Assembly (NCBI GenBank): GCA_977017645.1
Contig: OZ360245.1
Location: 38,068,001-38,132,000, forward strand
DNA length: 64,000 nt
Direction of reading: 5' to 3'
From: Torpedo marmorata
Taxonomy: Eukaryota
Every line of letters starts with the position of its first letter. Position 1 is the stretch's first letter. The notes under the pieces are model-generated. The model searched no databases and was not told where the DNA came from. It saw nothing but the letters and a program-made list of their open reading frames with translations. Positions 1,050-57,866 of this stretch are shown in pieces. The position numbers were made by a program, and so were the translations under genes.

Positions 1050-1453
1050 AAATAATTTTGTCACAAGGCCCAAAGCTTAATGTGCAACAAAAGAGGCATT
1101 ACTTGATGAATATCATGATGTGATTGGCAGAAGAAGTTGACGCATGAGGGTTGGACTTCAATCACTGTGCGAGAATCAGGATCTCCAGGTTCATATCGGG
1201 GCATAGTTGCGTGTGGGTGGGTGCTATCCAGTCAGAAATGGTGATGGGGACTTGGGCAGCAAGCAATGTTGCTAACTTTAAAACGCTGCTACCTAAAGCA
1301 TTATCCAGCATTCTGCATGATCTGCAGGTCCCTTTTGAGTATTCAGAAGTAAAACACGAAAATCTGTAGACACCGTGGTTGAAGTAAAAAACACAGATGC
1401 TGGAGAAACTCAGCAGGTCAAACAGTGTCTTTTATGTAGCAAAGGTAGAAATA

Positions 1454-1494
1454 CATAACCGACGTTTCGGGCTTGAGCCCTTCATCAAAGTATG
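1454..1494 (-). ncRNA. Minimal type I hammerhead ribozyme motif (Penelope terminal repeat)
   Basis: Reverse complement reads CAUACU-UUGAUGA-A-GGGC UCAA GCCC-GAAACGUC-GGUUAUG, identical to 6806-6846. Confidence 0.75.
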
Positions 1495-1683
1495 AGAAAA
1501 TGCCGGCAGGCGTCCGAACAAAAGAGTGAGGGGGGGAAGGGGGGGGGTAGCAAAGGCAGGAGATGATAGGTGGAGAAAGGAGGGAGGGGACAGCAGAAAA
1601 GAGGGGGAGGAGGGATGGCTGGGTGGGTGGAGAAAAACAGGAAGGACAGGTGAGGGTGGAGGGGAAGGAAACGACAAGCAGGT

Positions 1684-2954: not shown

Positions 2955-3061
2955 ACGTCGGTTATGTATTTCTACCTTTGCTACATAAAAGACACTGTTT
3001 GACCTGCTGAGTTTCTCCAGCATCTGAATACTACAACAACTCTGTGAAAACTCTTTGAGGG

Positions 3062-4856
3062 ATGCCTACCCTGAAGAAGTTCGCCTTTTCTCTCCGAAGG
3101 GAGTTCTGTGGGATTCTTTGTCACTGCTCCCTATCTGCAACCCCTGCTGCTCTCAAGCTCTACGACCATGTACTCACCCTGACTCGATTCCACAGCCACG
3201 TTGCCTTCCTTGCTACTTGCCTCCACTGCCATCTTGTGCCTCGTGGTTTCCAGCTTCGATTCCAGGCCTCCCAGTTTGGCCCTCGCAAGGATCTCAGGTA
3301 CCTCCACAGCATCGACTGCTGCTCTCTCCGCTTCTCCCAACGACTCCTCCGCACCACCTTCACCTCGATGCGGAGATACCAGCGGCAACTCGCCCTCTCC
3401 CTGCCACAGCTCCGGACCTCGCTGGCCATTGCCCCTCCAATACTACATCCGCCGCCGGATCCATGCGTTCAACCGCCGGCACTACACTCACCTGGCGTCC
3501 ATCAAGAAACGTAACCTTGCCTCCCTCTAGACTGCAGCCTCTGCGACCCTCAATGTGGATCCCTATCTCGGCCCCGACCGCCTGCCCTCTGGAGCTCCCA
3601 AGGCCGCGGCCGCCGACCGGATCCCTGGTCCCGGCCGCCGACTTTTTCCGGAGCTCCCAACGCCACGGCTGCCGACCCGAGCCTGGACCCCGGCTGCCGT
3701 CTCACCGGAGCTTCCAACGCCGCGGCCGCCGATCTGATCCCTGGTGTCGGCCGCTGACTTACCGGAGCTCCCAACGCCACGGCCGTCGACCCGACCCTGG
3801 ACCCCGTCCGCCAACTCACGAGAGCTCCCAATGCCACGGCCGCCGACCCGACCCTGGACAGCGGCCGCCGTCTCACCGGAGCTCCCAACGCCACAGCCGC
3901 CCACTCCTACCCGCGCCCCGGGCTCCGACACGAAGGTAATCCCGACGCTACGGCCGCCCACCCCAGCCCGGACCCCGAGCCTCTACTCACCAGATTTCCC
4001 GATGCCTCCACTGCCGACTCCCGACACAGACTGTTACCTGCTGGAGCCTCCCACGCTGACTGCCACTGGAGTCCTCATCTCGCTACTGGATCCCACTTAC
4101 CTATCCCCCTCACTACTCCTTCCCTATCCTCCTACACCTCTCCCTACTCCACCCCCATCTCCCCCTCTCTGACCCCCTCTCCTCCCCAACCCTTAGACCT
4201 CATCCCTTCCCTTCCCTCCATCCCCCCCTCTCTCTGGCTACCCTCCCTACCCCCCTCTCCCACCCTCCTACCTCCCCCACCTCCCCCAACCCCCAACTCC
4301 CCCCTCCGACCCCCCGACCCCCACTAACACCCCTCCTCCTCCCTCCAACCTCTCCCACCCTCCACCTCCCTCCTCTGACCTCCCCAACACTCCCCCTCCC
4401 CCCAACACCCTCCACAACACCGATGCCCACTCTAACCCCTGCTTGGTTTTTAATATCCCCTCCGACCTTCCCCTCTCTGAGACGGAGTGCTCGGTCCTCA
4501 GTAGAGGCCTCACCTTCGTCCCCCTCTGCTAACACCTCAACGAGTTCCGCGCACGCCATGATGCCGAACTCTTCTTCCGTCGCCTCTGGGCTCACTTCCA
4601 TGACCGTGACTCTCCACCCCCTACCCAAGAACCTTTCTCCCGCTTCAAGCCTTTTCCTTCTTCCTGGACACCTCGCCTTGGCCAGCTGCCCGCTCTGGAC
4701 CTTTTTATTTCCAATTGCCGCCGAGACATCAACCGTTTCAACTTCACCACCCAGCTCTCGTATTCCAACCTCACCTTATCAGAACGCTCTGCCCTCCACT
4801 CTCTCCGCAACAATCCCAACCTCACCATCAAACCCGCAGAAAAGGGCGGTGCGGTT
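3062..4856 (+). pseudogene. Degenerate N-terminal part of the Penelope ORF: HxxFLxxC..LVPRG motif, repeat and Pro-rich spacer, then the LSETECSVLSRGLTFVP pre-RT motif
   Basis: ORF 3062..3514 starts MPTLKKF and contains HSHVAFLATCLHCHLVPRGF. The PLE-typical LSxxExxVLSxGLxFxP motif is readable near 4470-4525. Frameshifts and stops intervene. Confidence 0.7.
3589..3900 (+). repeat. 57-bp GC-rich tandem repeat, about 5.5 units, inside the Penelope ORF
   Basis: Units like ccggagctcccaacgccacggccgccgacccgaccctggacc... start at 3589, 3648, 3705, 3762, 3819 and 3876. Confidence 0.92.
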
Positions 4857-6617
4857 GTGGTCTTTCGCACTGACCTCTACCTTGCCGAGGCCAGTCGACA
4901 GTTCTCAGACACCTCCTCCTTCCGACCACTCCCACAGGACCCCACCACTGCACATCAAGCCACTGTCTCCAACACCATCTCCGACCTCATCACCTGCGGT
5001 CACCTCCCCTCCACAGCCACCAACCTCATTCTCCCCCACCCCCGCACTGCCCGTTTCTACCTTCTACCCAAGATACACAAACCCAACCATCCGGTCAGAC
5101 CCATTGTTTCTGCCTGCTCCTGCCCCACCGAACTAGTTTCATCTTACCTTGACTCCATCTTTTCTCCTCTGGTCCAATCCCTCCCCACCAACATCCGCGA
5201 CACCTCACATGCCATCCATCTCCTCAATGACATCAGATTCCCTGAACCGGACCGCATCATCTTCACCATGGATGTCCAATCCCTTTATACCTCTATCCCC
5301 CACACAGAAGGTCTGAAAGCACTTCGCTTCTTCCTGGACCAAAGACCCGACCAGTCACCCTCTACCACCACCCTCCTCCGCCTGGCAGAACTTGTCCTCA
5401 CTCTCAATAACTTCTCCTTCAACTCCTCCCACTTCCTCCAAATCAAAGGAGTAGCCATGGGTCCCCGCAAGGGTCCCAGCTACGCCTGCCTGTTTGTGGG
5501 CTTTGTGGAGCAATCCATGCTGCAAGCCTACACAGGCAAGACCCCTCATCTCTTCCTCCGTTATATCGACGACTACATCGGGGCTGCCTCATGCACCCGC
5601 GATGAGCTTGTCAACTTCATCCACTTCGCATCCAACCTCCACCACGATCTCAAACTCACCTGGTCCATCCCCGATAACACTCTCCCCTTCCTGGATCTCT
5701 CTCTCTCCATCTCAGGAGACAAGCTTTCCACCGACATTTACTACAAACCCTCCAACTCCCACAACTATCTGGACTACACTTCCTCACACCCTGTCCCCTG
5801 CAAGGATTCCATCCCCTTCTCTCAATTTCTCCGTCTCTGCCGCATTTGTTCCCAAGATGAGGTGTTCCAGTCCAGATCTTCTGAAATGTCTGCCTTTTTC
5901 CACAAACGTGGCTTCCCCTCCACCACCATCAACTCAGCCCTCGCCCGCATCTCCTCCATTTCCCGCTCATCTACCCTGGCCCCCTCTGCCCCCAGACACA
6001 ACAAACATAGAATCCCCCTCATCCTCACCTACCACCCCACCAGCCTCCGCATCCAACACATTATCCGCCGGAATTTCCGGCACTTACTACAGGATCCCAC
6101 CACCAGACACATTTTTCCTTCTCCTCCCCTCTCGGCCTTCCATAGGGACCGCTCCCTCCGCGATTCCCTCGTGCACTCATCCCTCCCCACCCATCGCACC
6201 CCCAGCACCTTCCCCTGTGAACGCAGGAGGTGCAACACCTGTGACCACACCTCCCCCCTCACCACGGTCCAGTGCCCCAAACAGGCCTTCCAAGTGAAAC
6301 TACACTTCACTTGTACATCCAGAGAACTTATTTACTGCATCTGGTGCTCCCTTTGTGGCTTTCTCTACATCGGAGAGACCGGTCGTAGATTGGGAGACCG
6401 CTTTGCTGAGCACCTCCTCTCCGTCCGCAACAACAGCGACCTCCCAGTAGCCAACCATTTAAATTCCAGGTCACACTCCCACACTCACATGTCTGTCCAT
6501 GGCCTTCTGTACTATCCCACCCAGATTACCCGCAAATTGGAGGAACAACATCTCATTTTCCGTCTGGGCACTCTCCAGCCAGATGGCATTAACATTGACT
6601 TTTCTGCTTTCCACTAA
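4857..6617 (+). CDS. Penelope-like reverse transcriptase plus GIY-YIG endonuclease (open C-terminal 586 aa of a disrupted ORF)
   Basis: Motifs FYLLPKIHK, RPIVS, MDVQSLYTSIP, GVAMG and YIDD; Cys-rich linker CERRRCNTC; LIYCIWCSLCGFLYIGETGRRLGDRFAEH; ends LQPDGIN. The Cys linker points to the Neptune clade. Confidence 0.93.
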   Translation: MVFRTDLYLAEASRQFSDTSSFRPLPQDPTTAHQATVSNTISDLITCGHLPSTATNLILPHPRTARFYLLPKIHKPNHPVRPIVSACSCPTELVSSYLDSIFSPLVQSLPTNIRDTSHAIHLLNDIRFPEPDRIIFTMDVQSLYTSIPHTEGLKALRFFLDQRPDQSPSTTTLLRLAELVLTLNNFSFNSSHFLQIKGVAMGPRKGPSYACLFVGFVEQSMLQAYTGKTPHLFLRYIDDYIGAASCTRDELVNFIHFASNLHHDLKLTWSIPDNTLPFLDLSLSISGDKLSTDIYYKPSNSHNYLDYTSSHPVPCKDSIPFSQFLRLCRICSQDEVFQSRSSEMSAFFHKRGFPSTTINSALARISSISRSSTLAPSAPRHNKHRIPLILTYHPTSLRIQHIIRRNFRHLLQDPTTRHIFPSPPLSAFHRDRSLRDSLVHSSLPTHRTPSTFPCERRRCNTCDHTSPLTTVQCPKQAFQVKLHFTCTSRELIYCIWCSLCGFLYIGETGRRLGDRFAEHLLSVRNNSDLPVANHLNSRSHSHTHMSVHGLLYYPTQITRKLEEQHLIFRLGTLQPDGINIDFSAFH

Positions 6618-6805
6618 ACCTGCTTGTCGTTTCCTTCCCTCCCCCTTCACCTGTCCTTCCTGTTTTTCTCCACCCACCCAGCCATCCCTCCTCCCCCTCT
6701 TTGCTGCTGTCCCCTCCCTCCTTTCTCCACCTATCATCTCCTGCCTTTGCCACCCCCCACCTTCCCCCTCTCACTCTTTTGTTCGGACGCCTGCCGGCAT
6801 TTTCT

Positions 6806-6846
6806 CATACTTTGATGAAGGGCTCAAGCCCGAAACGTCGGTTATG
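6806..6846 (+). ncRNA. Minimal type I hammerhead ribozyme motif; predicted cleavage after C6839
   Basis: catac-tttgatga-a-gggc-tcaa-gccc-gaaacgtc-ggttatg: (C/U)UGAUGA and GAAA cores, a 4-bp stem II, palindromic ACGU in place of stem III, and stem I cauacu/gguuaug. Confidence 0.78.
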
Positions 6847-7885
6847 TATTTCTACCTTTGCTACATAAAAGACACTGTTTGACCTGCTGAGTGTCTGCAG
6901 CATCTGTGTTTTATACCCCTTTGAGTATTGCTGAAGTACATTTTGCCGTGAAGACGAGTTCATGCATGAGTGACCAATACCATCAGAGAGCAACATGTGT
7001 GGGGAGGGAATTTCCTGGAGGTCATGTCCAGTGGGTGCATTGCATTAAATTGGATGCCACTGCATTTGTCCAGGCATCTTTGTGCATTTTAGCACATCAC
7101 GTACACGGAGGTATCAAAAGCAAAATCACAAACTTCGTGGTAAATACCCGATCATATTCAGCAACACGTTTTTTCTGATGAAATACTGTTGCACTGCTTC
7201 TCATGATAGAATTTCGAGCCCCCATTCACACCTTCCCCTGTGCTGTCCTAACTTATTTCAGACAATTAGCAGTGGAGATATTACAATTGATTTAACAATC
7301 CCCAGGCTAGTCGAGGCCAATAATACAGCCAGAATTTCTTCTCCTGATCAATATCCAATGTCTTTGAAATTGTTGGATTGGATATTATGAAAGGGCAACA
7401 GGCTAAGCAGTGTTGCTCCTTCAACCATTGAATAATCTTATTGATGCATCTTTTGAGGTTCATACTGTGTAAAACTACAAGTAATTACTTGGATCAGGAA
7501 CTGAATAGATGCAAGCGTCATTGAGACTACAACTGAATGATAGTCACTGAATTCAACATTTGCTGGCAAGAGTATAATGGGCCAAACGGTTTGGCTTTTC
7601 ATGAATTTTCATGATTTTGATTTCTATGAATGGTGGGGGGACTGTGGGAAGTTGAAACATCATTGGGTACCCTGCATAAATACAGCAGTATTCGAAATAC
7701 CTTTTTCATTGCAATCATGGCTGATTACTCGAGTGTCTTCCAGGAGGCATGAATTTCCTGGCCACTGATGTTGGCAACCAGGAAAAACTTACTGCTTTAA
7801 ATTTCCCACCATACTAATGAATGAAAGGTAGGATTTTCACGATGGGTAAACTATGGAAGATAATTCTCAGTGATAACTGAGTGAT

Positions 7886-27715: not shown

Positions 27716-27741
27716 TAGATTTTAAAATGGGAAGCTGACCA

Positions 27742-32019: not shown

Positions 32020-32172
32020 GTAAAGCACAAAAGTCTGCAGACACCGTGATTGAAGTAAAAACACAAAGCTGGAGAAACTCAGCAGGTCAAACGTTGGTTA
32101 TGTATCTTTATCTTTGCTATATAAAGTGCACTGTTTGACCTGCTGAGTTTCTCCAGCATTGTGCTTTTACTT
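32020..32172. mobile_element. Fold-back Penelope-terminus derivative
   Basis: Inverted arms gctggagaaactcagcaggtcaaac / gtttgacctgctgagtttctccagc; junction at the hammerhead motif aaacgttggttatg. Confidence 0.8.
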
Positions 32173-33957
32173 TGATAATGAATTTATTGTTACATACAAT
32201 GTACGTGTGCACCCAAAATTCTACCATGTATCTACGCGAGGCTCACTGAGTTTAGATTGTCACTCTGAATCAGTCTCAGGACAACGAAAGGCCATTAGCT
32301 GTGCAATACCCTTCAAATGGCTAAAGCAAGAAATATATTCAACAGAACCTACCCTTGGGCAAGTAGTTAGGACTTGGTGTAACCACCGATTCTTACAAGC
32401 GGCAAATGTAGACCATAAACTTTAACAGCCAGCTCAAAAATGAAAGAACTTTCTCCCACAGATTGCACTGCTTTAGAGATCAATTCATGATTTTTTTTTT
32501 GGAGAATAGTGACATTTTAACAGTGGATTTCATTGTGATTGAAATGGTTTCTTTGAAACAACTACCATTACATACCTGCTCCTTGTCAAACCGTTACAAT
32601 TACTTTCCTTTCCAATCGCCTTTGAGAGCTACCTATTTATCATCATTATCAACCTCTTCTGTCAATCTTTTCCCCATATCTTCGCCGAAAATCTCTCAAA
32701 TATTAAATAAATTTAATTTTAAATGTGTCTAAAATCATAGATTCTCTGTGTATTTCATGGCCGTGTGACCGTTTAACTGTTGTTCTTACATGTGTATAGT
32801 AGTCCCGTTCTTCAAATGATCATCTCCCTTCAGTGCTGCGAAAGCCATACTTCGCTTTTTTTCAGTGCTGTTCTAGATCTTTCCAAATCCCTAATTTTAC
32901 TACATCCTGTTCAGCAGTATTGTTCATTCACTTCCTAATGATGTGCATGCTGCCACCAACACAAGCATTCCCACAACTACCCACTTTGCACTTTAAGTAA
33001 GGTGATAATGAACTCAAAAGAATTGTGCTTTTTGTCCCCTTTCCTTCCCTCTCTCGCTCTAACTCACACCCAGTGCTGAGGGGAGTGAGGGTAGAGATCA
33101 GAATTATGTTTCCACAGAATAAGCCCGACTTGGCAACAAGAGCTGCAGGCCCTGCACTTTAGATTACTCGGTAGATGTGATTCACACTGGATCAATTTGT
33201 CATCATACAAAATGAAACTAATTACTTCCTTGGGAAAAATTTCTTGAGAATTGTACCTAGTTATTGGCAGTCTCTATTGAGACAATGCCCCAGAACCTGA
33301 CGTGAGCTGGGAGGCTGAAGCAAAATTGGTTGTGGAAATAAATTCTTCGCATTTAAACCGATAATTTCGTCTGAATTGAATTTTATTTTAATTCCTGAGA
33401 GATCTACAACATGAACAAGTGAGATCAACTTTATTTTCTAATGTAAGGTCTAATCTTGCAGATGAATGCTTAATTTTCCTTATTGTAATAATGTTCTGAA
33501 GCAGATCAGGTAAATTATGTCGGAGAAACATTCTTTCTGAAAAGGGTGCCTTCAATAATCAACACCAATTATGGGCTTATGGCTATTTTTCAAGTGGTTA
33601 TTGTTTCAACAGCATTGACCCAGTCTCTGCAGACTAGGCCACCATTATTTTCCCCTTTCTCTATTCCTTTTCACACCTATTTTGCAGAGTTCCAGGTTGA
33701 ACAAAACCTTGATTTTTAAGGTTATAATGCTTGAGTTCAAATTCTCCATGATCATGCTCTTCTTTCTTGTCTAACCAGATCTACAACCATCCAAAGTCTA
33801 TGCACTGAATTGGCTTTGGCCTCATGTTACCATAGCATTCACCTGGCTACTGTTTGTGCCCGATGCCTTCAGTCATAGTTGTCTAAAAACACTGAAATAC
33901 CCTTCCAAGATCACTTTCATCTGTGTTGCTCATTATAAGCAAACTTCTTTAAGCAAT

Positions 33958-34120
33958 AAAAACACAAAAATGCTGGAGGAACTCAGCAGGTCACACAGCG
34001 TCCATTGGAGGTAAAGATATATGACCAAAGTTCCAGGCCCTCCTTCGAGACCTGCTGAGTTCCTCCAGCATTTTTGTGTTTTTACTACAATTACAGTGCC
34101 TGCAGACTTTCATGTTTCAC
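33958..34120. mobile_element. Fold-back Penelope-terminus derivative with 12-bp TSD
   Basis: Arms aaaaacacaaaaatgctggaggaactcagcaggtc and its reverse complement; flanks tctttaagcaat / tctgtaagcaat. Confidence 0.78.
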
Positions 34121-36044
34121 TCTGTAAGCAATCTTTGGTCTACCATTTTAGTTTGTGTCAAAGTGTCAAATTTGGTCAAATAATGCTCCCCGGAAGCAAC
34201 TCAAGGTCATTTACTTATTTAAAGACAATATATAAATCAAGGTTTATGGCTGGTTAACGTTGATATCACCTTCACCAATATTTCCATTTGTGAAATTCAG
34301 GCAGGGTCAAGTAGAGCTAGACCTTATTGCAACCAGCAAACCTTGCTGGATGGAGATTACAGCTCCGATAGCTCTTGAAATTTTAATACGTCTCAGACTT
34401 CTTCACCTGCACCATGGAACTCAGAAGTCTGAGACTTGCTGAACGGCAGAAGGGTGGTAGGTTATGATGCTGCTGCAAGGCTTGATTCCCCGTGGAATCC
34501 AGTGGAGGAGCTCAGTCTCGCCAAAAATCCCCAGCACTCAGTGGGGGAATCATCTGTCTGCATCAAGTCAGACGAGTTTAGGATTCAGAATCACATTGAT
34601 TTCATTGTGGATTCTAAATCTGCAGATTTCAAAGCAGTTATTTTTAATTATTTTAGTTTAATGCTTTTAAGTATTTATGTGATTTACTATTTTAATTTAT
34701 AAAAACTAAAATATTTTTAATAATGTTTTTAATTTTATACATTTAATGTTTTTGAATGACTCTGAGTGTCATAAATCCACTCTCGGCTTTGACACAAGAC
34801 TTAGCTTTCTCTTCCCTCGAAGCCGACCTTGGGAATTCCGGGCCCCAAGGCCCTGTTGCTTCTGAGAGCCCACACTTGAGTCAAGTGTGTGGAGGGGTAT
34901 TGAATGTGTCCAGCCAGTGGATTACTGATCCACTCTTCCAATGGAGACATCACATCTCGAAGGCAGCGGCCAATATTTGATCAGTGGGAATTGTTTGAAT
35001 ACAATTGGTGAAATGTCAGCTGTACATCAGATTCCTAAATCCACTTTGTTTTGGAAAGAGTTTGAAATAAAAACTTGTGCTTTTATAATTGCAGTTTTCA
35101 CAATATCGTATCGCTTTAAAGCCAATCGTGTACTTCTAAAGTTTTGACAGTGTTGGTGTGACAGAGCACACAATGAGATGATGGAGGAATTTGGTGGAAC
35201 AAGCAGAATCCCAACAGTAAATCACGAAAATCTGTAGACCTCAACATTTTGGTTTCGACCCTTTATCAAGACTAAAACCCCTTTTGACCATTTCTCCCAT
35301 AGATGCTGTTCCTCCAGCATCTCATTGTTTGCTCAAGATTGCAACATCTACAGTTTTGGTGTTTCTCCTTTCTCTTGGAATGATGGAAACATATTTGTCA
35401 ATTTAAGTTGCAAATCCATAGAAATAACAATAAGATATTCTGTGTTGTTTTGTTCGTGCTGAAGGGATGACGCTTGGGATCACTTCTCTGCTCCACTTTG
35501 AGAGCTTTTCAGAGGTGCAGGTGCTGAGGTGTTGGTTAATAAGTAGAATCTTCACAGAAGCAATAGTTCAGAACATAAGGTTTTAAGCCTGTTTGTTGAG
35601 GTGAAAACTAGTTTTGACCAGATTTTATTTATTTTGGCATTTCTATTAAAATTCAACATATCCACCAGCAAAGTTTTTGCAAAAATGTTTAAATTGAAAA
35701 AAAAATGTTGAGTGGGTTAAGCAGATGGTTGTTCAAAATCCAGAAAACAATCAGGGCCAATATAACATTTGGTGCAAAGGAAAGGTGTTTTTGATAAATT
35801 TCTTATCCATTGTTCAGGATGAATTGCCCCTTTTCTGCTTAGTTTAAAGAAGTGGAGTTAATCTGGGTGACAATAACGCCTGTTTGTTTACAAAGCTCTG
35901 CTGTTTTGCCATAGCTAAATTGGTTTTAAGTGCTTGATGTAAAAAGTTGGCTCTCCATTCTGAATCCTTTCACAAAATCTGTTGTCTCTTTAGTGTTTGC
36001 CATTTCATTATCCAGGAAGTGCTGCTTGGGTGAAAGAGAAGTAT

Positions 36045-36200
36045 GGGCATATCTGTCTGTCAGATAGCCTGATAACATGCTGTAGGGGCTTTCAAAGTCT
36101 TGCTTTTCGCTGAAAAGGCATTAGCCCACTGATAACAATCTTGTCTAAGTGTGGCTGATACCTACCATCAGCCTCAAGTGATGGCTGATCTTATCATTGC
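36045..36200. promoter_or_regulatory. Cluster of GATA motifs, candidate enhancer
   Basis: AGATAG (36062), TGATAA (36070, 36130), CTTATCA (36190) plus near-matches within ~150 bp of non-repetitive DNA. Confidence 0.3.
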
Positions 36201-38294
36201 CTTTAAGTCCCATTTGTGCTTTCTTTTTATTTAAAGTCACCATTTGCTGTTCGGCCATTGGAAATTGCATCTGAAAAAAAATCAAAGCCTCCTGGTATAC
36301 ACCTCTCAATCTTTCAAACCATAGCCTATTCTGACATTTAAGGTGAGATGTGTGGTTGCGTTTTTCATTGCATTTAATATAGTGACAACTGGTCCTAACT
36401 CATGCAGTGCAGGAGTAATTAGTGTCATTTGATTAAATGCATCTCATTGAAGACAAAAACAAATTACAATAGCACTGTCATCTGAGACAGAACCCTCCTC
36501 TCAGCATTCTGGATGTATTTGCATGAATTGCTAGTAGGAGATTAAATTGTTCCTATTTGAAGATTGCTTTATTTTAAGTTATCCCGGTTGCCACCTTTGA
36601 GACTGAAAGCCCAGTTTGTTTCCCACAGAAATGTACTGCTTGCAATCGAGAAACAGTTAACACTGGGTCAGAAGGTGGTGGGATGTTAACGGAATTAAAG
36701 ACAAATAGCTTTGTATGGTTTACTCTTTCACTGTCATATTGCAACTCAGCTGGAAGTTGATGATGAAAACTAATCCGTTGCTATAAAGTAAGCAGTTATC
36801 TCTGTGTTCATTGAGGTAAATCCAATCATTTAAAAGGTGGTGCCTTGCACAAGTGAAGAAAAGGCTTCAAATCAAACAAAATAAACTGTCCGTTTTTTAC
36901 AACACTACAGGCAGCCAGAGTGGAAATGATAGGGTGATTTCACTGTCAATCAAACTTGCTGAGCACACTGCTATAAGTGACAAAATTGATTTTATGCACA
37001 GAATTTTCTGGGGAAATTGCTCAGATTCTACTTGGAGAAGTTGTTGTAGCTTATAAAAAGATGTCTTAACAAAAGGAAAACATGGCAGACGCTGGAAAGC
37101 TGAAATTAAACTCAATGCAGGAAGTACTCAGCAGGTGGGGCAGCATCTTTGGTGAGAGAAGCATAGTTCATGTTGTGTCTGATTATCTCGCTATATTTGC
37201 TTCCTGACCTGCTGATTATTTTTGTGTTATTTTCTGATTGCTAATCAAATGACTTTGTGGAGTGGTGGGTTGTTTGCTTTGAGTTGCATGCCTTTCTTAA
37301 TCTTCCACTTCATTGGTTCACATTGTTCCAGTTAAATAAAAAACCCTGTCTAGAAATTAGACCATTATTATTTGGTAATGCCCAATTGCATTCCTGAAAG
37401 AACATGGTGAAATTGACAAAAACTGAGAGAAATAACATCAGGCTGATTTTCAGCCAGAACACTGGAGGGTTAAGGGCTGGGTACAGGTCAGTGGGACTAG
37501 GAAAAAAAATGGTTCAGCACAGACTAGAGGGGCTGAGGTGGCCTGTTTCTGTGCTGTAATTGTTCTATGGTTCTAACACACACTGAAAGGGATTTACACT
37601 GTTCCATACTCAGTTGCTGAAATGAGAAGGGAGTGTTTCCAATGGCAGACAAATAGCAGCGCACACCTATGATGCCATGGAAGAGAGAGGCTGCAGGTGA
37701 GAGCAGAGAAGAGAGACTGCAGGAGAGAGGGGAGGAGACTGCGAGAGGCGGCAGGAGAGAGGGGAAAAGAGAGGCTGAAAATCCCTTATTGAGTTTATGG
37801 CAGGGGAGAGGTAACAGACATATTTCGGGCCAACAGAAGTGGCGTCTGGAAGGAAGTGGCTCCAGCTGTCTCCTTCAGATATGAGAATCCCCATTCACTC
37901 CATCAATGCTGAAGTAATTTACATGCAGGAAGGGTGAGCTGCACACTGCTCTGACACTGCTCACAGGAAGCATTTCAGGAGTGGGCGACAGATGTTGATG
38001 TATCATGATCAAAGGAAGGTGTGAGGGGTCATTATGCATCATCTAAAATCTCTTGGCAGATTGCATGTGAACCAGCCTGGTTCTAAGGATTGGAATATGG
38101 AGAAACTCACTTTGGGGCCCATGGTTTTTCAGGTGGCTTCTGAAAAGTGTCTATCATGGAAATCCTAGTCTTTGCCTGTCTCCACCACACTGCTGTAAGA
38201 TGCAATGGTGTTTGCTGGGATTTTCCTTTGGTAGCCTTCTTTGTTCTCCAGCTCCACTTGCTTGACTTGGAAAGCTTAATTTGTAAATTTGAGT

Positions 38295-38560
38295 GCACAG
38301 AAACACAGGAGGCTGTAGAAGGTGGCCAGCCTAGCCAAGTCCATCACAGGCACTGGACGCCCCATCCATTGAAGACATCGACGTGTGGCGCTGCCTCAAC
38401 AAGGCATCCAACATCTTGAAGGACCCCCATCACTCTGGTCATGATCTCTTTTTGCTTCTGCCTTCAGACAGAAGCCTGAAGCCCAGTCCCTCTGGGGTTT
38501 TCAACAACCATTTGGCTCTTGAACCTCCCCAAACTGCCCTAACTATAAATTACTCCAGGA
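38295..38560 (+). mobile_element. Old Rex1/Babar-type LINE 3' remnant
   Basis: WRCLNKASNILKDPHHSGHDLFLLLPS. Confidence 0.7.
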
Positions 38561-39579
38561 CTATCAAAAGATGAGCCTACACAATTGAAATCTGCATTAA
38601 GTTTGTTTATTTATCATGTTATATCTAGTACAGTGAGGATAATTGTTTTGCGAGTAGTCTAAGAGGTCAACTCTAACATTCATGCAGGTGTTGAAAGTAG
38701 AAGAGCACAATTTACAGAGTCTTGAGTTATAATGAATAAAAGTCAATTAGTACCAAGCAACAGTGAATATTTACCTATCGTTTTTATTTATTATCTCTTT
38801 TTCTGACATAGCGAATTATGGCAAGTTAATTTATACTATTGTTGGTGTATCATTTGTACCTGTGTGGCTGCTGCAAGTAAGAATGTTGGTCACCTGCACA
38901 TTGTACTCATGTATATGACAACAACCTCTCATATCATATCCTATTCTCTGCTCTTCAGCCTCGGTGTCTGGTCCTTAAGGCACCAGGCCCACATGCTTCC
39001 TCTTCACCAGGTGCTTTCTAAATCATGTAGCACACAGAAGACAGTGGTGAAGTCTTCGCATATGCGTATACTGCAGGGCTCTCTCAGACCAATGCAGGCA
39101 CAAGAATCTCAGTCTTAGAAGAGCAGTGGGAATTGCCATGACCATTCTGGTGCTTGTATAACTCTCACTAGTGAGTAGCTGCAGAACGACTATGTATTGG
39201 AGGGAGGAGACTGGGAAGGAGTTCCTCAGGATTCATATCTCTGGGCAGTGCTGGCCGTCCAAAAGATCCAACAACTTGAGGTCTCCCTCAGCATTGAATG
39301 GATTGTGCGCTTTCGGGAAAAATGCTCCACCATCAGGAAGACCATCAAATGACCCAATCTTTCTTCATAACTACCATGGTCTTCCAACAGTACTAAATTG
39401 AATGGATATCATCCTCAATTTCAACCACAAAATTCAGAAATAACAAAGGGCAGTGACATTTAGTTTCTACGTTTGTGATTTCAGGACTGGACCAACCCCT
39501 ACGATTGAGGGAGAGTGGGGGTTAGTTTGAGGATACACCACATTGTGTTTTCCAGAATTAATGCTCTTCACTTCAAGTA

Positions 39580-39806
39580 TACGGCATGGTTAGCACAAAG
39601 CTATTACAGCACCAGCGACCCGGGTTCACATCCAGCGTTCTCTGTAAGGAGTTTGTACATTCTCCCCGTGTCTGCGTGGGTTTTCCCCGGGTGCTCTGGT
39701 TTCCTCCTACCCTTCAAAACGTACGGGGTTGTAGGCTAATTCGGTGTAAATGGGCGGCATGGCCTCTTGGGCTTGAAGGGCCTGTTACAGTGCTGTACGT
39801 CTAGTT
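39580..39806 (+). mobile_element. V-SINE/HE1-like SINE
   Basis: V-domain ggagtttgtacattctccccgtgtctgcgtgggttttccccgggtgctctggtttcctc. Confidence 0.82.
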
Positions 39807-40886
39807 TAAAAGAAAATTATAGATCTCCATGATATTTCCTGATTAACCTGAAATCGTTCTCTCATCCCACTGAAAGCTAAATAATCTGAAGGAAAATTAT
39901 GCTCAGATGGAAATAAAATGTAAACATAATAAGCAGATGTAAAAGTAGATAGGCTGATTGGTTCGAGCTTGTGGCATGCTGGCATGGGCAGAAATGGTGA
40001 GATTTGAAAATGGTTGATGGAATCCAATTTGTAGAGACTCCCATACACTGTATGCTCTTGAAATAGTCTTTGAAAGATAAAATCAGATGGGGAAAGCTTT
40101 ATTAATGAATATTGAACTAATTAGAATGAGGGAGTTAGTCACTGCGTGTTAGATAACTGTTTCACATTCACTCTTGGGATGATATAAAAATAGATAGGTT
40201 TTAAATGAATTTGGCACCTTTGATGGCTTAATCAGTTCACCAGTATAACTGTGGTCAATGAGTTAAGGCATTTACACATTAATTGATTGGAAATGCTCTT
40301 GTGTGCTCCAAGGCAATTGCTAATTGCAGCAGGTAAATGCCCCAGATCGAAGAGCGATATAATAAATAATTATGAAGTTCTGAAAAGATGGCAAGAAATG
40401 AGCTGCAATTTAAGATGGGAATTAGCAATTGATAAAACCACCCACTGAGGCTGTCTCTGTTGCCTTAAATTGCCTTTAAAATTCTTAATTTCCCAAAGCA
40501 AATAGTTTCTGCACTGAAGGATGATGGCAAGGATTAGACGTGCATCCAGTTGACATTTGCTGTGGGTGTATTTTCAGAATGAAATTGATGACCTTTGAGC
40601 TGCCAAGAATGAGGAGGTGTTAAGATCTTAAAAGTGACTGCATCTCAGCACTATTCAACATTGACAGACAGCCTGAATAACATTTTCGCCAACATTTGTC
40701 TTCCAAATTGCATAATGTAAAATATTTATAAAACATGTGTGGAAGTGAATTTAAAAGACATTTTAAAGTCACTGTTTAAAGTATTCATATTTATGCAAAT
40801 TCAGAAACATGGAGATGAAGGCAGGCGGGTGGTTGTTGGTCTGGAATCTCAGTGGTGGGATGCAGGGCTTGCCTCCCTTTTCTGGT

Positions 40887-41123
40887 AAAACACAAAAGTC
40901 TGCAGACACCGTGATTGAAGTAAAAACACAATGCTGGAGAATCTCAGCAGGTCAAACAGTGTCCTTTATATAGCAAAGATAATATAACCAACGTTTTGGG
41001 CTTGAGCCTTTCATCAAGGTATGATAAAGGACTTAAGCCCGAAGCGTTGGTTATGTATCTTTATCTTTGCTATATCAAGTACTCTGTTTGACCTGCTGAG
41101 TTTCTCCAGCATTGTGTTTTTAG
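40887..41123. mobile_element. Palindromic Penelope-terminus derivative with two back-to-back degenerate hammerheads and a perfect 14-bp TSD
   Basis: TSD ctcccttttctggt at 40873-40886 and 41124-41137; ~100-bp inverted arms meet at ...catcaaggtatgataaagg... Confidence 0.88.
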
Positions 41124-41429
41124 CTCCCTTTTCTGGTTTCTTTTATAAGCTCAATGCTGAATAGGATTTAATAGTGAAGGATGAACAAAGTTTGGAATGA
41201 TCTTGGTTTGATCTTTGTGTTTGCTAGGAGTGCAAAGCAGGATCTGGTACTTGCAGGTATCCAAGTGCGTCCAGTGTAAATTGAACCATCAATGTCAAAC
41301 CTAACAATAACAAGGGAAGTGTCAGATGTTCTGGCATTATAGATACAAATCCTCGTTCCAGGAGCCAATGAACAGTTTCAAGTAAATTTCTATTTTATAC
41401 AGAGGCTGTCCTACTTTGTAAATGTTCTG

Positions 41430-42222
41430 CTTTGCTTGAGTTATATTCTGTTTTATAATCTGGCCTCCTTCCTTGAGAAAGGATAAACAGTAAAACTCCT
41501 GTTATCCGGAATTCAAGCAACCGGCAGCCTCAAGCAACCATCAAAAAAATCACGGAAAATAAATACCGGTAGGTAAAAAATACGGCTTTAAAATTGGCAC
41601 GCCTCGCCGTTAGTTCGCCAAGCCACGCAACATGCAGTCTCAAGCAACCGGAAAATTCACTTACCCGGCATCTACCAATCCCCATAGGTGCTGGATACCA
41701 AGGGTTTTACTGTACTGGCTTTGGAGGTGGTGCAGAGGATTTTCATCAGGTTGATTCTGGAGACGTGGGGGTTAGCCTATGAAGAGAGATTGAGTTGCCT
41801 GGGACTATAATCACTGGAATTCAGAAGAATGAGGGAGACTCTTAATGAAGCATATAAATTCATGGAAGGGATAGACAAGATAAGGGCGGGAAGTTGTTTC
41901 CATTTTTAGTTGAGACTATAACCAATGGTCATAAGCCTCAAGATTCGGGAGAATAGATTTAAAATGGAGATGAGGAAGAACTGCTTTTCCTAGAGTAGTA
42001 CTGAATTTGTGGAATTCTCTGCCCAAGGAAGCAGTGGAGGCTGCCTCATTAAATGCATTTAAGGCACAGATAGATTTTTGCACATTTAGGGAATGAAGGG
42101 TTCTGGGGAAAAGGCAGGTTGGTGGAGCTGAGTCCAAGGCCAGATCATCCATGATCTTATAAGATGGCAGAGTAGGCTCGACGGGCCATATGGTCTATTC
42201 CTGATTCTATTTCTTATGTTCT
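41430..42222 (+). mobile_element. CR1 LINE 3' fragment interrupted by a MITE
   Basis: ttcagaagaatgagggagactc, gaatttgtggaattctctgccc, and tail ggctcgacgggccatatggtctattcctg. Confidence 0.8.
41488..41712. mobile_element. Tc1/mariner (Tigger/pogo-like) MITE
   Basis: Termini cagtaaaactc...gggttttactg followed by TA; same family as 45120-45334. Confidence 0.82.
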
Positions 42223-42424
42223 TTGCACAGTGGTGCCATGAGGCATTTGACTCCTTCAGATAGATCTTGTGTACCTGATCTATTCTGAGCATTGTGTTGT
42301 TAGTCAAAGTCTGCCTGGGTATTTGGGAATCTTGACATTTAACAAAGTTACACGTTCAAGTGTGAGATGTTTCTGTCATTTCTCTTTTAATTCATTCCGT
42401 TCTATTCATTTTCCATGGCTACAA

Positions 42425-42760
42425 ACTGTGTATCTGACCAGGTAGATGTTGAGATGCTTTCACTGGTGGGAGAGTGACGAACCTGGGGACATAGCTACAA
42501 GATAAGGGGCAGGTCATTTAATACTGAGGTGCATAGAAATTCCTTCTCAGAGGCTAGTGAATCTCTAGAACTCTCTGCTCCTGAGAGTGGCAGAGGGTCA
42601 GATCACTGGATATATTTAAGTCAGAGATAGATAAATATTTGAAAGGTTGAGGGTTATGAAGAACCTGGACAGAAGAGGAGTTGAGGCAATGACCGTAATG
42701 AACGGGTGGACAGGCTTGAGGGGCCTGTTGGTCTGCTTCTGTTCCTATTGTGTTCTTATG
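42425..42760 (+). mobile_element. Old CR1 3' fragment
   Basis: ggggacatagctacaagataaggggcaggtcattta...ggcttgaggggcc...ttcctat. Confidence 0.7.
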
Positions 42761-42867
42761 TACATTTTATACAAAATGGCAACAAAAATATGTAATCTTG
42801 AGTTTTTCATTGAATCCTGTGGTAATGGAAATACTGCATGGTTCTTGAAAACATAGTAAACATGAAA

Positions 42868-43132
42868 GGGCGGCATGGTTGTCGTAGCGTAGTGGTTTGC
42901 GCAACGCCTTTACAGCGCCAGCGATCGGGACTGGACCAGGGTTCGAATCCCGCGCTGTCTGTAAGGAGTTTGTACGTTCTCCCTGTGTCTGCCTGGGTTT
43001 TCTCCGGGGGCTCCGGTTTCCTCCCACCGTTCAACAAAAAAACGTACCAGTTGTGTTGGTTAATGGGGTGTAAATTGGGTGGCACGGATGCGGGGGCCGA
43101 AATGGCCTGCTACCGTGCTGTATGTCTAAAAA
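42868..43132 (+). mobile_element. Young V-SINE/HE1-like SINE
   Basis: A-box-like gtagcgtagtgg, B-box ggttcgaatcc, V-domain and CR1-type tail. Confidence 0.87.
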
Positions 43133-43253
43133 ATAATAATTTTTTAAAAAAGATACCGCTGGTCACTTTTGCACGACATAATGTCGTACAAACAAATCAC
43201 AGATCTTTTTTTCTGCTATCTTCTTGCTGTATAGAAATGGACAATTTTTGCGT

Positions 43254-43366
43254 ATACCTTGAAGAAGCTTAGGCCCGAAACGTCGGTAATATATCTTTAC
43301 CTTCTTATGGATGCAACATCTTTGTGTTTTTACTACAAGTCATATGCAGACTTTCGTGTTTCACTC
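43254..43366 (+). mobile_element. Solo Penelope terminus with a degenerate hammerhead
   Basis: ataccttgaagaagcttaggcccgaaacgtcggtaat...gcagactttcgtgtttcact. Confidence 0.65.
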
Positions 43367-43849
43367 ATTTTGGGGGATTCTGCCCAGTTTCCATTGATTA
43401 TGGTTCAGTGTGTTTCCACTAGAAAGAAGATTGTTGATAAGTTGGAGATACCAAAGATTTTTAAAAAACTGTGTTTGTAACTTTTTAATGTTTTTTTCTG
43501 TTTATTCAATCCTGGGGTTCAGATTTCGCTGGCAAATGCCTTCCTCCCTGATCGCTGTTGAGAAGGCAGTGGTATAATTAATAAATTGGAAAATTGTTTC
43601 AGAAAAAAACTCCTTGTCTAAATGACTGATAGGATATATTTTCACACAGGAAAAGTGTGAGGTATTTATAAATCTTTATAAATCTTCTTCTGTTTCGTCA
43701 GAATGGAGAGGCAGGGGCCTGCTGGAAGACATCTGTCAGATCCAGTGTCAGGATTTAGGATTGCATTTATTTTTTACTGGAAATTTTTAAGATTTGGTGA
43801 TTTATAAACACAAATAAATCCAGCAACCTGATTAGAGCAATTATAGTTA

Positions 43850-44627
43850 AACAAGAAAGTCTGCAGATGCTGTGATTGTAGTTGATACACAAAAATGATG
43901 GAGAAACTCAGCAGGTCACGCAGCGATCTTTACGTGGCAAACATACATGTGATGTTTCTTTTTATTGTAATAAAGAAACTTGGGTTCTTTTAAAACAACT
44001 ATACTTTATTAGCTATCGACTCAAGACCACGTGGAGGCATCCATCTTGAATCCAACTGAAGCTGCCACAAATTAGTCTCCGACTCCCTCTAGTGGTCAGG
44101 AGGATCACTAGCACTCTATCATTAAAATACATAACAAATGTTTCGAGCCTGAGCCCTTCGTCAAGGTATGGGCAAAAATGTTGGGGGGAGGACCACGGGC
44201 CCACAGGCCAGAGGTTATATGTGGATATGGGTGGGAGGGCAGAAGAGATAAAAGCTGTGAAGTGAGTACACATCACGTTCTGCCTGGGCACTCTCCAACT
44301 AGACGGTATTAGCATTGACTTCTCCACTTTCCATCAGGCCCCTCCACAGTCTGGCTCTCTTTCCCTATCCCTCTGTCTCCTTTCCTCCAGCTCTCCACCC
44401 CCTTCCCTCACTTCTCAGTTGTTTTTCCCTTCGGCCCTACCACCCATATCCACTTATGTCCTCTTACCTGTGGGCCTGTGCTCTTCCCCCTGCCCCTCCC
44501 CCATCATTTTATTCAGGCAACCACCCCCCCCCCCCATGCTTTTTGCTCATACCTCGATGAGGGGCTCAGGCCCGAAACGTTGGTTATGTATCTTTGCTAC
44601 ATAAAGAAGTCTGCATGACCTGCTGAG
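43850..44627. mobile_element. Inverted Penelope derivative: minus-strand terminus fused to plus-strand ORF end, 3' UTR and hammerhead (44548-44588); 18-bp TSD
   Basis: HITFCLGTLQLDGISIDFSTFH near 44270-44335; catacctcgatgaggggctcaggcccgaaacgttggttatg; flanks ttagagcaattatagtta / ttagagcaattgcagtta. Confidence 0.82.
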
Positions 44628-45119
44628 TTAGAGCAATTGCAGTTATGTTTCCTCATAAAAAAGACCGTTTTTCACAGTTAAATGCAAGAAATTGGACATG
44701 TCACAGCCTTTCTTTCTACCTTTGGTGAGACACCTCGATAGCTTGGGGAATTTGTGAACTGCTGAACAGTGATTTTCAATCACAGGGCACACTGAAGCAA
44801 AATTTCCAGACATGCACATGAGGAAACTGCAAATCAACAGAAGTTTGAATAGCAGCAGTGTGGTTGAATCTGCCAAGGAAAGTCTTGTTATCACAGAATA
44901 AAAATATTAAATTTTGTCCCTCAAGCTAACAGCATTGTTTTAATTAACATTTTTATTTAGTTTAATCCCACTTTAATCTCACAATCTTAAGAAAATTTTC
45001 AAGCAAATGTTTATTCCTTTTTAAAATAATTTTAGGTGTTTAACAACAGAAGTCTTTGGGTAATATGGAGTATAAAGTTTATATTTTGTTTTAGGTCCCT
45101 GATATATCATTTCAATATA

Positions 45120-45334
45120 CAGTAAAACCCACGTTATCCGGAATTCAAGCAACCGGCAGCCTCAAGCAAATGGTAAAAAATTGTGGAAAATAAATAGATT
45201 AAAAAAAGTTTTAAAATTGGCGCACCTCGCCGTTAGTTCGCCAATCACCCAACACGCACTCTCAAGCAACCGGAAAATTCACTTATCCGGCATCTACCAA
45301 TCCCCATAGGGGCCGGATATCAGGGGTTTCACTG
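45120..45334. mobile_element. Tc1/mariner (Tigger/pogo-like) MITE
   Basis: TA|cagtaaaaccc...ggggtttcactg|TA. Confidence 0.87.
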
Positions 45335-45419
45335 TATCTGTTATCAGCTGCTGTTACATTTAAGGTCCTTTTATAGTGAAAATTAGCGATTTGTAAAGAC
45401 AGGTTTCCTCTGCCTTTAA

Positions 45420-46215
45420 GACGCTCCACTTACCTCCATAAAAGGTCCAAAGGAGGATTGGCTGGTCCAACTTGCTCCACGTTCCCTCCTCCTAGGGCGG
45501 TAGTGTCAGAGGTGGAGTGACTTCGCTCCACCTCCTGCGTAAAAGGATTGCAGCTGAAAGCGGCTCCAAACAGGAAGGTAAGATGATTGACGTCACGCTG
45601 ACAGCCCCGTCGCCCCGCTGCGCTGTCACAGAGCGGCTGGTGGAGATGTCAGGCTGCGCTCGCTCACTCCGCCATGCTCCCTCACGCCACTCCCCCGCCC
45701 CGCTCCCTCACGCTGCCCGCTCCCTCACGCCGCCCCTTGGACCGAATGGCCATGACTCTGCAGGCTCCTGGCAGAGGCACCGCTTCATTCAACGCTGGGT
45801 GTACGGGGCTTGCAGATTCCGTGAACTGCGCAGCGGGGCTGTCGGGATGGAGCGGGGCGGTGGGATCGGTGTGGGTCTGATAGGGGGGAGATGCGGCAAG
45901 AGGAAGGGGGAATGGTAGGGAGGGGAATGGAGAGGGAGGGGAATGGAGGAGGAAGGGAGTGGGGTGGCGGGACTGTCAGGCAGCGGAGCAGGGGGGCTGT
46001 CAGGCAGCGGGGCGGGGGGCTGTCAGGCAGCAGGGCTCAGGCAGCGGGGCGGGGGGCTGTCAGGCAGCGGGGTGGCGGGGCTGTCAGGCAGCGGGGCTCA
46101 GGCAGCGGGGCGGGGGGCTGTCGCAGGGCGGCCGCTGCTATGCTGCACATCCCGCCCCCTTTTTCCCTGGGAAGCCGGCGCGCTGCTCTGGGCTACATAA
46201 AAGGACTGCGCTATC
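45420..46215. promoter_or_regulatory. CpG island / candidate bidirectional promoter
   Basis: Sharp rise in GC and CpG content; ATTGG (45457), GGGCGG, full CRE TGACGTCA (45588-95); minus-strand donor GAG|GTAAGT at 45434/45433 and plus-strand donor AAG|GTAAGA at 45577/45578. Confidence 0.6.
45961..46125 (+). repeat. G-rich minisatellite with a ~23-24 bp unit (ggggcggggggctgtcaggcagc) and shorter variants
   Basis: Read directly: five ctgtcaggcagc and two ctcaggcagc units. Confidence 0.88.
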
Positions 46216-46559
46216 CGCCTTTTCCATCCTCTGCATAAAAGGTAAATTTTCCTTTTTTTAAAAATTTGAGCAGGCGATAATGCGGCTTTTGTACATAAAA
46301 ACCCCTTGAGATTACTGTGGAGACATAGTCAGCATTGAAACACCTTTCTGACCAAGTCCAGAAGACATAGCATTCAATAAGTTGATGAGGCATTTCGGTA
46401 GACTAATCAGTAGGTAGATGTCATCTATTGGAGTTGGGCTATGTTAGTAGAGTGTAGTGTGCCAAAGTTTCACTAAGGGAAGTTCTGCTGAAGCTAGTGA
46501 GCCCAGCAATCCTCAGATGATGAGTTTTTAAAGTTAAAACATCTTCTCTTGATATCTTC

Positions 46560-46739
46560 GACACAAAAATGCTGGAGAAACTCAGCAAGTCATGCAGCGT
46601 TCTTTCTGTAGCAAAGATGAAGACACATAACCAACATTTCGGGCCTGAGCCTTGATGAAGAATGCTGCGTGACCTGCTGAGTTTCTCCAGCATTTTTATG
46701 TAAACTACAATCATGGCGTCTGCAGATTTTCTTGTTCAA
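46560..46739. mobile_element. Fold-back Penelope-terminus derivative with a perfect 17-bp TSD
   Basis: TSD cttctcttgatatcttc at 46543-46559 and 46740-46756; arms join inside hammerhead sequence (tttcgggcctgagccttgatgaag). Confidence 0.88.
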
Positions 46740-48035
46740 CTTCTCTTGATATCTTCTTGCACAAAAACAATAAACCACCGATTTTGAAAATACTCCAGTG
46801 CAGAAGAAATATTTTGCTTCAGATAGGAATTACACTTGACTTGCCGAATTTTTAAGTGTGCTCTCAGTACATGGGACAGCTTTGTTATTTTATGGTTTTC
46901 TCCTTCAAGGATCATTTAGGTCCAGAGACATTTGAGCTTTTTGTGACAGTGAGCTCCTGATTTTGCTTTGCATTCAGGTGAGGGAGCCAGGACTACAAGA
47001 AAAACAATGTGTAACCAGGTATATTTTGACCGGGAGGAAAGAACAAAGTCAAGCAATAAGAGATTGGACAGTCGGACATGGCATGATGTTAGCCTGCTGG
47101 GAGGTTGAGGTGCAACAGAAGATGATCTGTTCTGCCTGGAACACAAGGGTCTCTTCTTGTCTCCATCGTTGTTGCTTGAGAAAGTCAGATTCTCACACCT
47201 GTTAATCATCCTTCGTTCACTCATGGCCTTGTGCGTGAGATTTTATGTTCTGCAATAAAGACATTTAATTTAGATTCAGCTCCATCATAAGTAATTAAGT
47301 GGGCTGATGTGCAACCCCACAAACTTTTTTTTGTGAAGGAGTCCCTGAAAATCCTGATCCAAGCGTTTTTTACTGGCAGTTACACAATGCCGCCTTCAGT
47401 ATTGTGCAGTATTAAGATGAAAAGCGCATTGCTGCGTTCAGTTGCTTATTCTTTTCTAACATAGTTCACTGACCCAAGAATGGAAAATTAGAGCAAACAA
47501 TTCCATGGCCGTTTCTGAGACACGTTGGGCCTGACTTTCCTTCACAGAAATGCTGGAGGAACTCACCAGGTCTCACAGCGTCCATAGGAGGTAAAGACAC
47601 AAACCCTAATCTGTACCTCATTGCATTTATATTTCATTATAAATGGGAATATGGGTTAACGCAGTTTTGCCATCCAAGAGGCATTGTCACTTATTCAGAA
47701 TGATAAACAATTGCTCATATCTTTTCACTAACTTGTTGAATTCCAGAATGTTTTGCACAAACCCAGAGACTGGCCAACAACCCGAAACAAATTTAATTAT
47801 AGATCTATGACATGCAAAATTAAAGAGCTGGACTGAAATTGCAGGGGATGTGTGTTTTGTGTAATTAAATTGCACAAATGTGAAAGCAAGTTAGCAACAT
47901 TGATTTGAAACCATTATTGTTTAAGGACTGAAGGAATAAGGATCTTTTTCAAGGTGACAATCCCCTCTTATCTTTAAGGGTATGATTTGGTATAATTATT
48001 GGAATTTATTGGACCTGCCATAAAAGTAACATGCT

Positions 48036-57600: not shown

Positions 57601-57866
57601 ATGGCCCGATCGCTGGCTGTTTAAAACTCCCGTGGTGTTGAACTTGCCTGAGCGCCGGCTGTTTAAAGGTCCCGCGGCCCGACGGAGACTGCCGATTCTT
57701 CCAATTCCGAGGTCTTCCAGCGATCTTAGGACATCCTTATTCACGGGTAAGTTTTATTTTATGGTTCTGGATCTGGGGTTGAATTTTAGTAGTTCTGAAC
57801 GGGAATATTTGATCATTCCCGTCAGAGCTGCACGCAAAGAGTCGCCACTGTAAGGCGCCATCTTGG
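54661..57866 (-). mobile_element. Near full-length Rex1/Babar-type LINE (APE endonuclease + RT), disrupted
   Basis: 5' end ccaagatggcgcc; APE motifs CFTETW, GRGVC, IVGDFN and SDH; RT motifs [28 protein letters not shown] and GAPQG; (ATTCTG)n tail; multiple frameshifts. Confidence 0.92.

Follow-up and report, generated by a model that had tools for sequence, protein, structure and literature searches.

Inverted insertions of a Penelope-like element in Torpedo marmorata pair one long with one short end, pointing to double-primed reverse transcription

The window analysed here, a 64,000-nt stretch of the 6.2-Gb Torpedo marmorata genome (contig OZ360245.1; G000:C59:38068001-38132000), contains five palindromic insertions and one 5.6-kb composite element, all made of Penelope-like element (PLE) sequence. 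Two outward-pointing copies of the PLE 3′ terminus were located, by self-comparison and with a terminus profile, at each of the five palindromes, where the initial annotation had placed them, and likewise in the 5.6-kb element (Table 1). The target-site duplications (TSDs) of 12, 14, 18 and 17 bp previously assigned to four palindromes were reproduced, and the six elements reached TSD scores of 8, 9, 11, 12, 14 and 17; random pairs of 45-nt flanks scored ≥9 in 11/1000 and ≥8 in 34/1000 cases. In all six, as had been claimed, the full tail is kept at one end only, this long end lying at position 0 to –5 and the short end at about –36 to –43 (–62 in element 43850–44627).

Inspection of the 5.6-kb element revealed an open frame of 694 amino acids in which a reverse transcriptase (RT) domain is followed by a C-terminal GIY-YIG endonuclease, as in endonuclease-positive PLEs. 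Matches to RVT_1 (E=6.6e-6) and GIY-YIG (E=0.0023) were both under the Pfam cut-off, and Atlas clusters the frame with RT/GIY-YIG at 0.98. Further PLE hallmarks are a pseudo-long terminal repeat (pLTR) or partial tandem, an inverted truncated copy, a 30–40-bp tail and a TSD. A CX2-5CxxC linker before GIY-YIG and a CxxC inside it define Neptune and Nematis (PMC8557442, in its accessible text); the frame contains both, as CERRRCNTC and CIWCSLC, and judging by these motifs the parent is a putative Neptune- or Nematis-type element. A candidate minimal hammerhead, matching the descriptor as a U3 core variant, is predicted in the pLTR at both ends of the 5.6-kb element and in both arms of 43850–44627, the core reading UUGAUGA or UCGAUGA rather than CUGANGA. 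Genome-wide, a 30-nt hammerhead pattern had 63,370 exact matches. The two sites at which copies end are imperfect direct repeats ~38 nt apart that bracket the tail. In tandem copies (L018, L002, L126) the tail continues into the 5′ region, with an ATG ~35 nt further on, unlike in the 5.6-kb element, whose 5′ pLTR lacks the tail and abuts the 5′ region directly at a short repeated TCTG (window 3020–3030).

End usage was examined in blocks of contiguous DNA totalling 564 kb (364 kb on C59, including the window, and 100 kb each on C1 and C5). End points were bimodal: 34 of 80 profile matches of at least 30 bits ended at the outer site, i.e. the tail end, and most others 24–44 columns earlier. A separate query stopping before the tail retrieved 30 young copies, 14 long-ended and 16 short-ended. 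Among 87 outward pairs tested in the blocks, 17 had a TSD adjoining both ends (15 at score ≥9 and 2 at score 8, with nulls of 0.3% and 1.9%), and all 17, six of them the window's own, combined a long with a short end. The tail-neutral query yielded 12 TSD-supported inversions with both ends visible, again without exception long plus short, and 40 loci with the hammerhead pattern added seven more, five long plus short and two long plus a deeper end. Exactly one long end was thus present in 36/36 TSD-supported inverted insertions, 30 of them outside the window, with neither long/long nor short/short cases. This count comprises insertions collected regardless of their tail, loci from tail-biased queries being excluded. 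Under independent 50:50 choice of sites, 30/30 outside the window would have a chance of about 1e-9. By eye, the pairing was visible in much older subfamilies, too.

Several pairs were dropped from the block count, namely six with a repeat score ≥8 whose repeat lies away from the ends, eight adjacent pairs without a scored TSD (long/short by eye), and two apparent homotypic neighbours (B59 17243–17929, B1 33393–34727) with arms of different subfamilies and no TSD; from the searches, L108 (long/short, no scored TSD) and L171, L178, L190 and L196 (TSD unclear) were omitted. Each site is also used alone, as non-inverted 5′-truncated single copies with 9–16-bp TSDs end either long or short. The short inverted-repeat shape with a TSD might suggest a miniature inverted-repeat transposable element (MITE) of a DNA transposon. 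However, the marks of a MITE, terminal inverted repeats of equal extent and a short TSD of fixed length, are both absent: the arms derive from the 3′ terminus of an element that encodes RT, the termini are unequal, differing by ~38 nt, and the TSDs vary from 9 to 19 bp. This refutes a MITE origin, to which we attach practically no credence.

Comparison of the arms showed how variable these insertions are. Young inverted insertions have arms from ~55 bp to >2 kb in a continuous size range, TSDs of 13–19 bp, and junctions that all differ from one another, the outcome anticipated for de novo double priming rather than for a propagating family. In a crude exact-match walk, the junctions of 19 young loci had 0–4 nt of overlap in eight and apparent fillers of 2–60 nt in 11 cases. 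The short arm extends further 5′ in 11 and the long arm in seven of these loci; for instance, in L123 the long arm reaches –67 and the short arm –931, and the short arm of the 5.6-kb element likewise contains sequence missing from the long arm, which carries the tail. As the short arm is the longer one 5′ in 11/19 loci while the tail is found only on the long arm, neither arm was copied from the other. The 5′ reach of the two arms was similar (within 25%) in 7/19 young loci compared with 15% expected, a weak effect (p=0.014; Spearman 0.06); the block rows, which are approximate and include one mis-entered row (43850), were not used in this comparison.

The two arms of an insertion are nevertheless kin. 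Within 21 young elements, 12 private variants were shared over 10,009 overlapped positions, vs. five over 158,045 positions between insertions (1.2 vs. 0.03 per kb), and arm divergence was 4.7% within and 5.9% between elements. Between the two arms of the same element, 30 look-alikes of palindrome 3 shared 45 minor variants, a number reached in 0/10,000 permutations, and 9/29 doubletons fell inside one element, against 1.7% expected. In L071–L100, the first CpG of the hammerhead stem III region read G>A in 14 long vs. three short arms and C>T in 11 short vs. four long arms, a bias that may reflect decay of the same DNA strand, its long-arm half possibly being due to query bias. Taken together, variable arm lengths, differing junctions and shared private variants suggest that each insertion was built afresh at integration, its arms probably representing two copying events from one source.

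These observations bear on two alternative routes. In a simple snap-back, one cDNA would fold back and copy itself up to the inner site; this explains the shared private variants and fits the 7/19 loci with a longer long arm, but it cannot produce the 11/19 loci or the 5.6-kb element, in which the short arm holds extra sequence and the long arm the tail. As a general route it is refuted by the non-nested arms, and we rate it as highly improbable. Alternatively, the inverted arm could arise by self-priming, possibly on an antisense template, or by template switching in a branched intermediate, the tail asymmetry resulting from inner-site cleavage of the pLTR by the element's own endonuclease. 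Such a resolution would likewise leave each insertion with a single tail and with arms that share their origin. Yet the non-nested arms of 11/19 young loci would need two separate copying events, short-ended single copies carry clean TSDs, and RT starts were mapped in vitro to both tail boundaries (accessible text of PMC11167929), so that we consider this route unlikely.

The palindromes might also belong to a non-autonomous mini-element, a retrozyme- or SINE-like palindromic RNA copied as a unit with its junction kept; the second scenario of the initial annotation, a non-autonomous, retrozyme-like palindromic RNA mobilised in trans, is of this kind. Indeed, of 3,559 candidates in a search with palindrome 3, the 40 scored matched it end to end at 85–89% (self 100%), and 25 of 30 look-alikes had a TSD of their own of 9–19 bp (null 0.9%). 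By eye, these 30 fell into ~18 junction types, two of which recurred six times each; in the older subfamily, moreover, the hammerhead edge shows an excess of 5′ boundaries. Against a mini-element, the recurrent junction types sit on different haplotypes with both arms concordant, the combination of a shared junction with arm-specific mutations expected of such a family was not seen, the arms of the look-alikes having no fixed differences except one CpG, and even inside one junction type sharing within an element exceeded long–long and short–short sharing (2.5 vs. 0.73/0.60 and 1.0 vs. 0.20/0.13). Sizes form a continuum up to kilobases, the hammerhead core is missing in 3/5 palindromes, and the arms stand head to head, with none of the head-to-tail tandem units with an intact type I hammerhead that mark non-LTR retrozymes and no head-to-tail array at the five loci. 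With junctions and arm lengths this variable, arms related within insertions and recurrent junctions on different haplotypes, a palindromic RNA of this kind appears very unlikely.

The recurrent junction types are explained by a soft hotspot of 5′ boundaries at the hammerhead 5′ edge in the older subfamily. In this 'CC' subfamily, exact matches fell from 12,384 to 10,158 and 8,849 over two 2-nt steps (18% and 13%), i.e. 28.5% of the 12,384 were gone over 4 nt; in the young 'TT' subfamily the loss was 3.7% over the second step, the only one tested. On inspection, 10 or 11 of 23 'lost' matches proved to be true 5′ boundaries and the rest point variants; four of the boundaries belong to solo pLTR stubs next to a TSD. 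Of 19 arms that pass the edge, five stop within the next ~50 nt. Transcription starting at the hammerhead 5′ edge could account for the hotspot, as could short self-complementary stretches near the core. A hard transcription-start boundary at ATAC was rejected, the losses being gradual and mostly confined to the older subfamily.

Labelling the palindromes as hammerhead-bearing, as had been done, turned out to be mostly wrong. With a relaxed descriptor, the motif was found only in both arms of 43850–44627, i.e. intact in 1/5 palindromes, and in the 5.6-kb element; palindrome 40887 contains two decayed copies by eye, and the 5′ hammerhead core is missing in 32020, 33958 and 46560. Rfam returned no hammerhead in 40700–47000, only below-threshold miRNA matches, and folding of the hammerhead and the tail gave no significant z-scores. 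The description as tiny applies to the other palindromes, not to 43850–44627 with its ~600 bp of PLE and a 177-bp unrelated insert in the long arm, and fold-back is apt for the shape of the DNA, not for the mechanism. The 177-bp insert had no second match within the ~1 Mb of DNA fetched.

Further observations concern the ends of PLE copies. The TSD end of the 5.6-kb element (1330–1350 / 6916–6929) matches element sequence several bases beyond the long end, hinting at possible microhomology between primer and template. At L171:384–651 (G000:C1 near 40771870–40772140), the 35-bp tail is repeated head to tail, without a mismatch, at least 7.7 times, the array extending beyond the edge of the sequence analysed; its 100% identity suggests a recent minisatellite-like expansion, for which the two direct-repeat sites may have served as seeds. 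In L020:75–273 (a 30-bp unit in 6.6 copies directly after the TSD), L019:725–811 and L003:1070–1126, element sequence is present at the 5′ junction as short tandem duplications, suggesting RT stuttering or repeated re-priming by this telomerase-related RT. The density of PLE termini is uneven, with none in ~137 kb (C1:100056000–100100000, C5:100007000–100100000) vs. about one per 4 kb on C59. Other retrotransposon remains in the window, named by eye, are LINE copies with RT frames at 1–1049, 48036–48992 and 54661–55717 (91–94% identical) and a CR1-like RT frame and an endonuclease-like frame at 27739–28545 and 56882–57736.

Table 1. PLE-derived features of the window (window coordinates; TSD, target-site duplication; RT, reverse transcriptase)
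Feature	Position	Strand	Remark
5.6-kb element, inverted long arm	1345..2954	-	1.6 kb; minimal hammerhead predicted at 1488 (-)
5.6-kb element, sense arm	2952..6915	+	near-full-length, partial 5′ pLTR; ends at inner (short) site
5.6-kb element, TSD	1330-1343/6916-6929		13/14
694-aa open frame	4533..6617	+	RT, CX4CxxC linker, GIY-YIG endonuclease with CxxC
Palindrome 1, long arm	32020..32092	-	with tail; ~78 nt into PLE 3′ end
Palindrome 1, short arm	32089..32172	+	starts inside hammerhead, ends at inner site
Palindrome 1, TSD	32004-32014/32171-32181		10/11, weak
Palindrome 2, short arm	33958..34035	-	older subfamily
Palindrome 2, long arm	34043..34120	+	
Palindrome 2, TSD	33946-33957/34121-34132		11/12
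Palindrome 3, long arm	40885..41023	-	stops at hammerhead 5′ edge
Palindrome 3, short arm	41022..41123	+	
Palindrome 3, TSD	40873-40886/41124-41137		14/14
Single long-ended PLE stub	43244..43366	+	internal deletion
Element 4, long arm	43846..44265	-	split by 177-bp insert (43946-44121); hammerhead motif at 44164 (-)
Element 4, short arm	44270..44629	+	ends ~20 nt short of usual inner site; hammerhead motif at 44554
Element 4, TSD	43832-43849/44628-44645		16/18
Palindrome 5, short arm	46560..46656	-	
Palindrome 5, long arm	46658..46739	+	
Palindrome 5, TSD	46543-46559/46740-46756		17/17
Single short-ended PLE stub	47543..47604	-	

The palindromes are 5′-truncated inverted insertions of this very abundant PLE, and we consider it probable that they were generated by double target-primed reverse transcription at two sites. 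Such stereotyped double priming, with a distal site and a fixed one ~35–40 nt inside, was the initial annotation's first proposal; it fits every test run and comes near the in vitro result in the accessible text of PMC11167929. The RT–GIY-YIG protein would nick both target strands ~11–18 bp apart, and the 3′-OH at either nick would prime reverse transcription of PLE RNA, one from the outer and one from the inner site, which lies ~38 nt further upstream. Synthesis of each cDNA would end independently of the other; their head-to-head joining, with minimal or absent microhomology or via a short filler, would be followed by fill-in. Staggered nicks and two start sites would account for the TSD and the long/short asymmetry, and priming from a single nick for plain 5′-truncated copies with either end. 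The tiny palindromes would be the smallest products in this size range, their numbers raised by a tendency to stop at the hammerhead 5′ edge in one older subfamily. Both primings were probably served by one RNA or by RNAs of one source locus; a single RNA is the simplest account of each site being used once.

A number of observations weigh against double priming in this form. In L016, window 43850, L181 and L197, the second end is located further inside the element than the inner site, and L118 consists of a short end plus an internally primed non-overlapping inversion within a 15-bp TSD; the inner site is therefore a preference (L023 resembles L118, without a TSD). At 28 intermediate-frequency sites, arms within an element agreed 19 times and disagreed 19 times (between elements, 101 vs. 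806). L102 carries four variants confined to its short arm, which could reflect two source RNAs or recurrent decay, and the shared variants could derive from gene conversion between arms. Many single copies have no visible TSD. In four runs from related organisms, contigs extend out of unique flanking sequence into 32020, 33958, 40887 and 43850, which shows that these four insertions are shared; no empty-site contig was among the matches listed for these organisms. Lastly, the in vitro support comes from a Poseidon element, i.e. another clade, for which no difference in start site between strands was seen (accessible text of PMC11167929).

A stronger version of double priming, taken as a whole, is conceivable and deserves only tentative trust: PLE integration would be an obligately asymmetric twin reaction on one RNA, in which a dimer engages both nicked strands and each site is used once; one RT would start from the inner site and its partner from the outer one, the latter following by displacement of the first cDNA. 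The 150–250-bp palindromes and the solo pLTRs would then be run-off products of a dimer loaded on the transcript's 5′ pLTR copy, the transcript starting at the hammerhead 5′ edge in a putatively initiator-like TCATAC context. If true, a single mechanism would cover inverted pLTRs, the one-sided tail and the tiny palindromes.

In twin priming of L1, the second nicked strand primes on the RNA, resulting in a 5′ inversion inside the TSD. L118 and L023 look like such non-overlapping inversions; mostly, however, the second priming here occurs at a fixed site beside the first, so that one stretch of sequence is copied in duplicate, giving overlapping arms. Other counterparts are the canonical endonuclease-positive PLEs (Arkhipova et al. 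2013, PMC3846280; Craig et al. 2021, PMC8557442; both as far as their accessible text goes), which share the inverted 5′-truncated copy beside a sense copy, the 30–40-bp tail at one end, the TSD, partial tandems, and RT with C-terminal GIY-YIG. A typical Penelope is depicted as having, besides its direct pLTRs, an inverted pLTR and a TSD, with a 31-bp tail on one of the inverted ends, and self-priming is proposed (PMC3846280); PLEs are drawn with an inverted truncated copy and a tail often at one end only, the cycle being called undefined (PMC8557442). By comparison, TSDs here are mostly 11–18 bp vs. 8–10-bp cases in the rotifer paper, the one-end tail is found in 36/36 insertions rather than being optional or frequent, copy number is very high, and many insertions measure only 150–300 bp.

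For PAc, a Poseidon element of Anolis, both strands were cut and extended, RT started at two sites bracketing the tail, and a dimer model was put forward (Frangieh et al. 2024, PMC11167929, in its accessible text). The two start sites recur here, and PAc insertion had no need of the hammerhead; differences are the CX2-5CxxC linker in our frame, missing in Poseidon, and the location of the sites ~35 nt before the first ATG rather than 111–118 nt into the ORF. That study left the two start sites unlinked to the two strands, and its accessible text contains nothing on their pairing or on inverted insertions. With minimal hammerhead systems, which were defined in a 2014 paper that also mentions opposite-strand pairs 100–700 bp apart in Schistosoma (PMC4209133, accessible text), the motif shares the unpaired base before stem II and the palindromic ACGU. 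Retrozymes differ in being head-to-tail tandem non-autonomous units, as opposed to head-to-head arms mostly without an intact ribozyme and with no lineage of their own; the accessible text of a 2026 retrozyme preprint mentions neither palindromes nor the tail.

In the open literature, subscription papers and repeat databases lying outside the search, we found no paper counting long/short pairing or testing arm kinship; palindromic stubs may already be catalogued. Such stumps will easily pass for MITEs or miRNA hairpins; the appropriate annotation is as products of PLE insertion. The tens of thousands of copies in this genome offer a natural dataset on PLE integration. The absence of homotypic pairs (0/36), the non-nested arms and the one source set three sharp constraints on the undefined PLE insertion route. 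Compared with known systems, the layout of inverted truncated copy, one-end tail and TSD is textbook PLE, and the palindromes are its short end, not a new family; new here are the strict long/short pairing, the non-nested arms and their common source.

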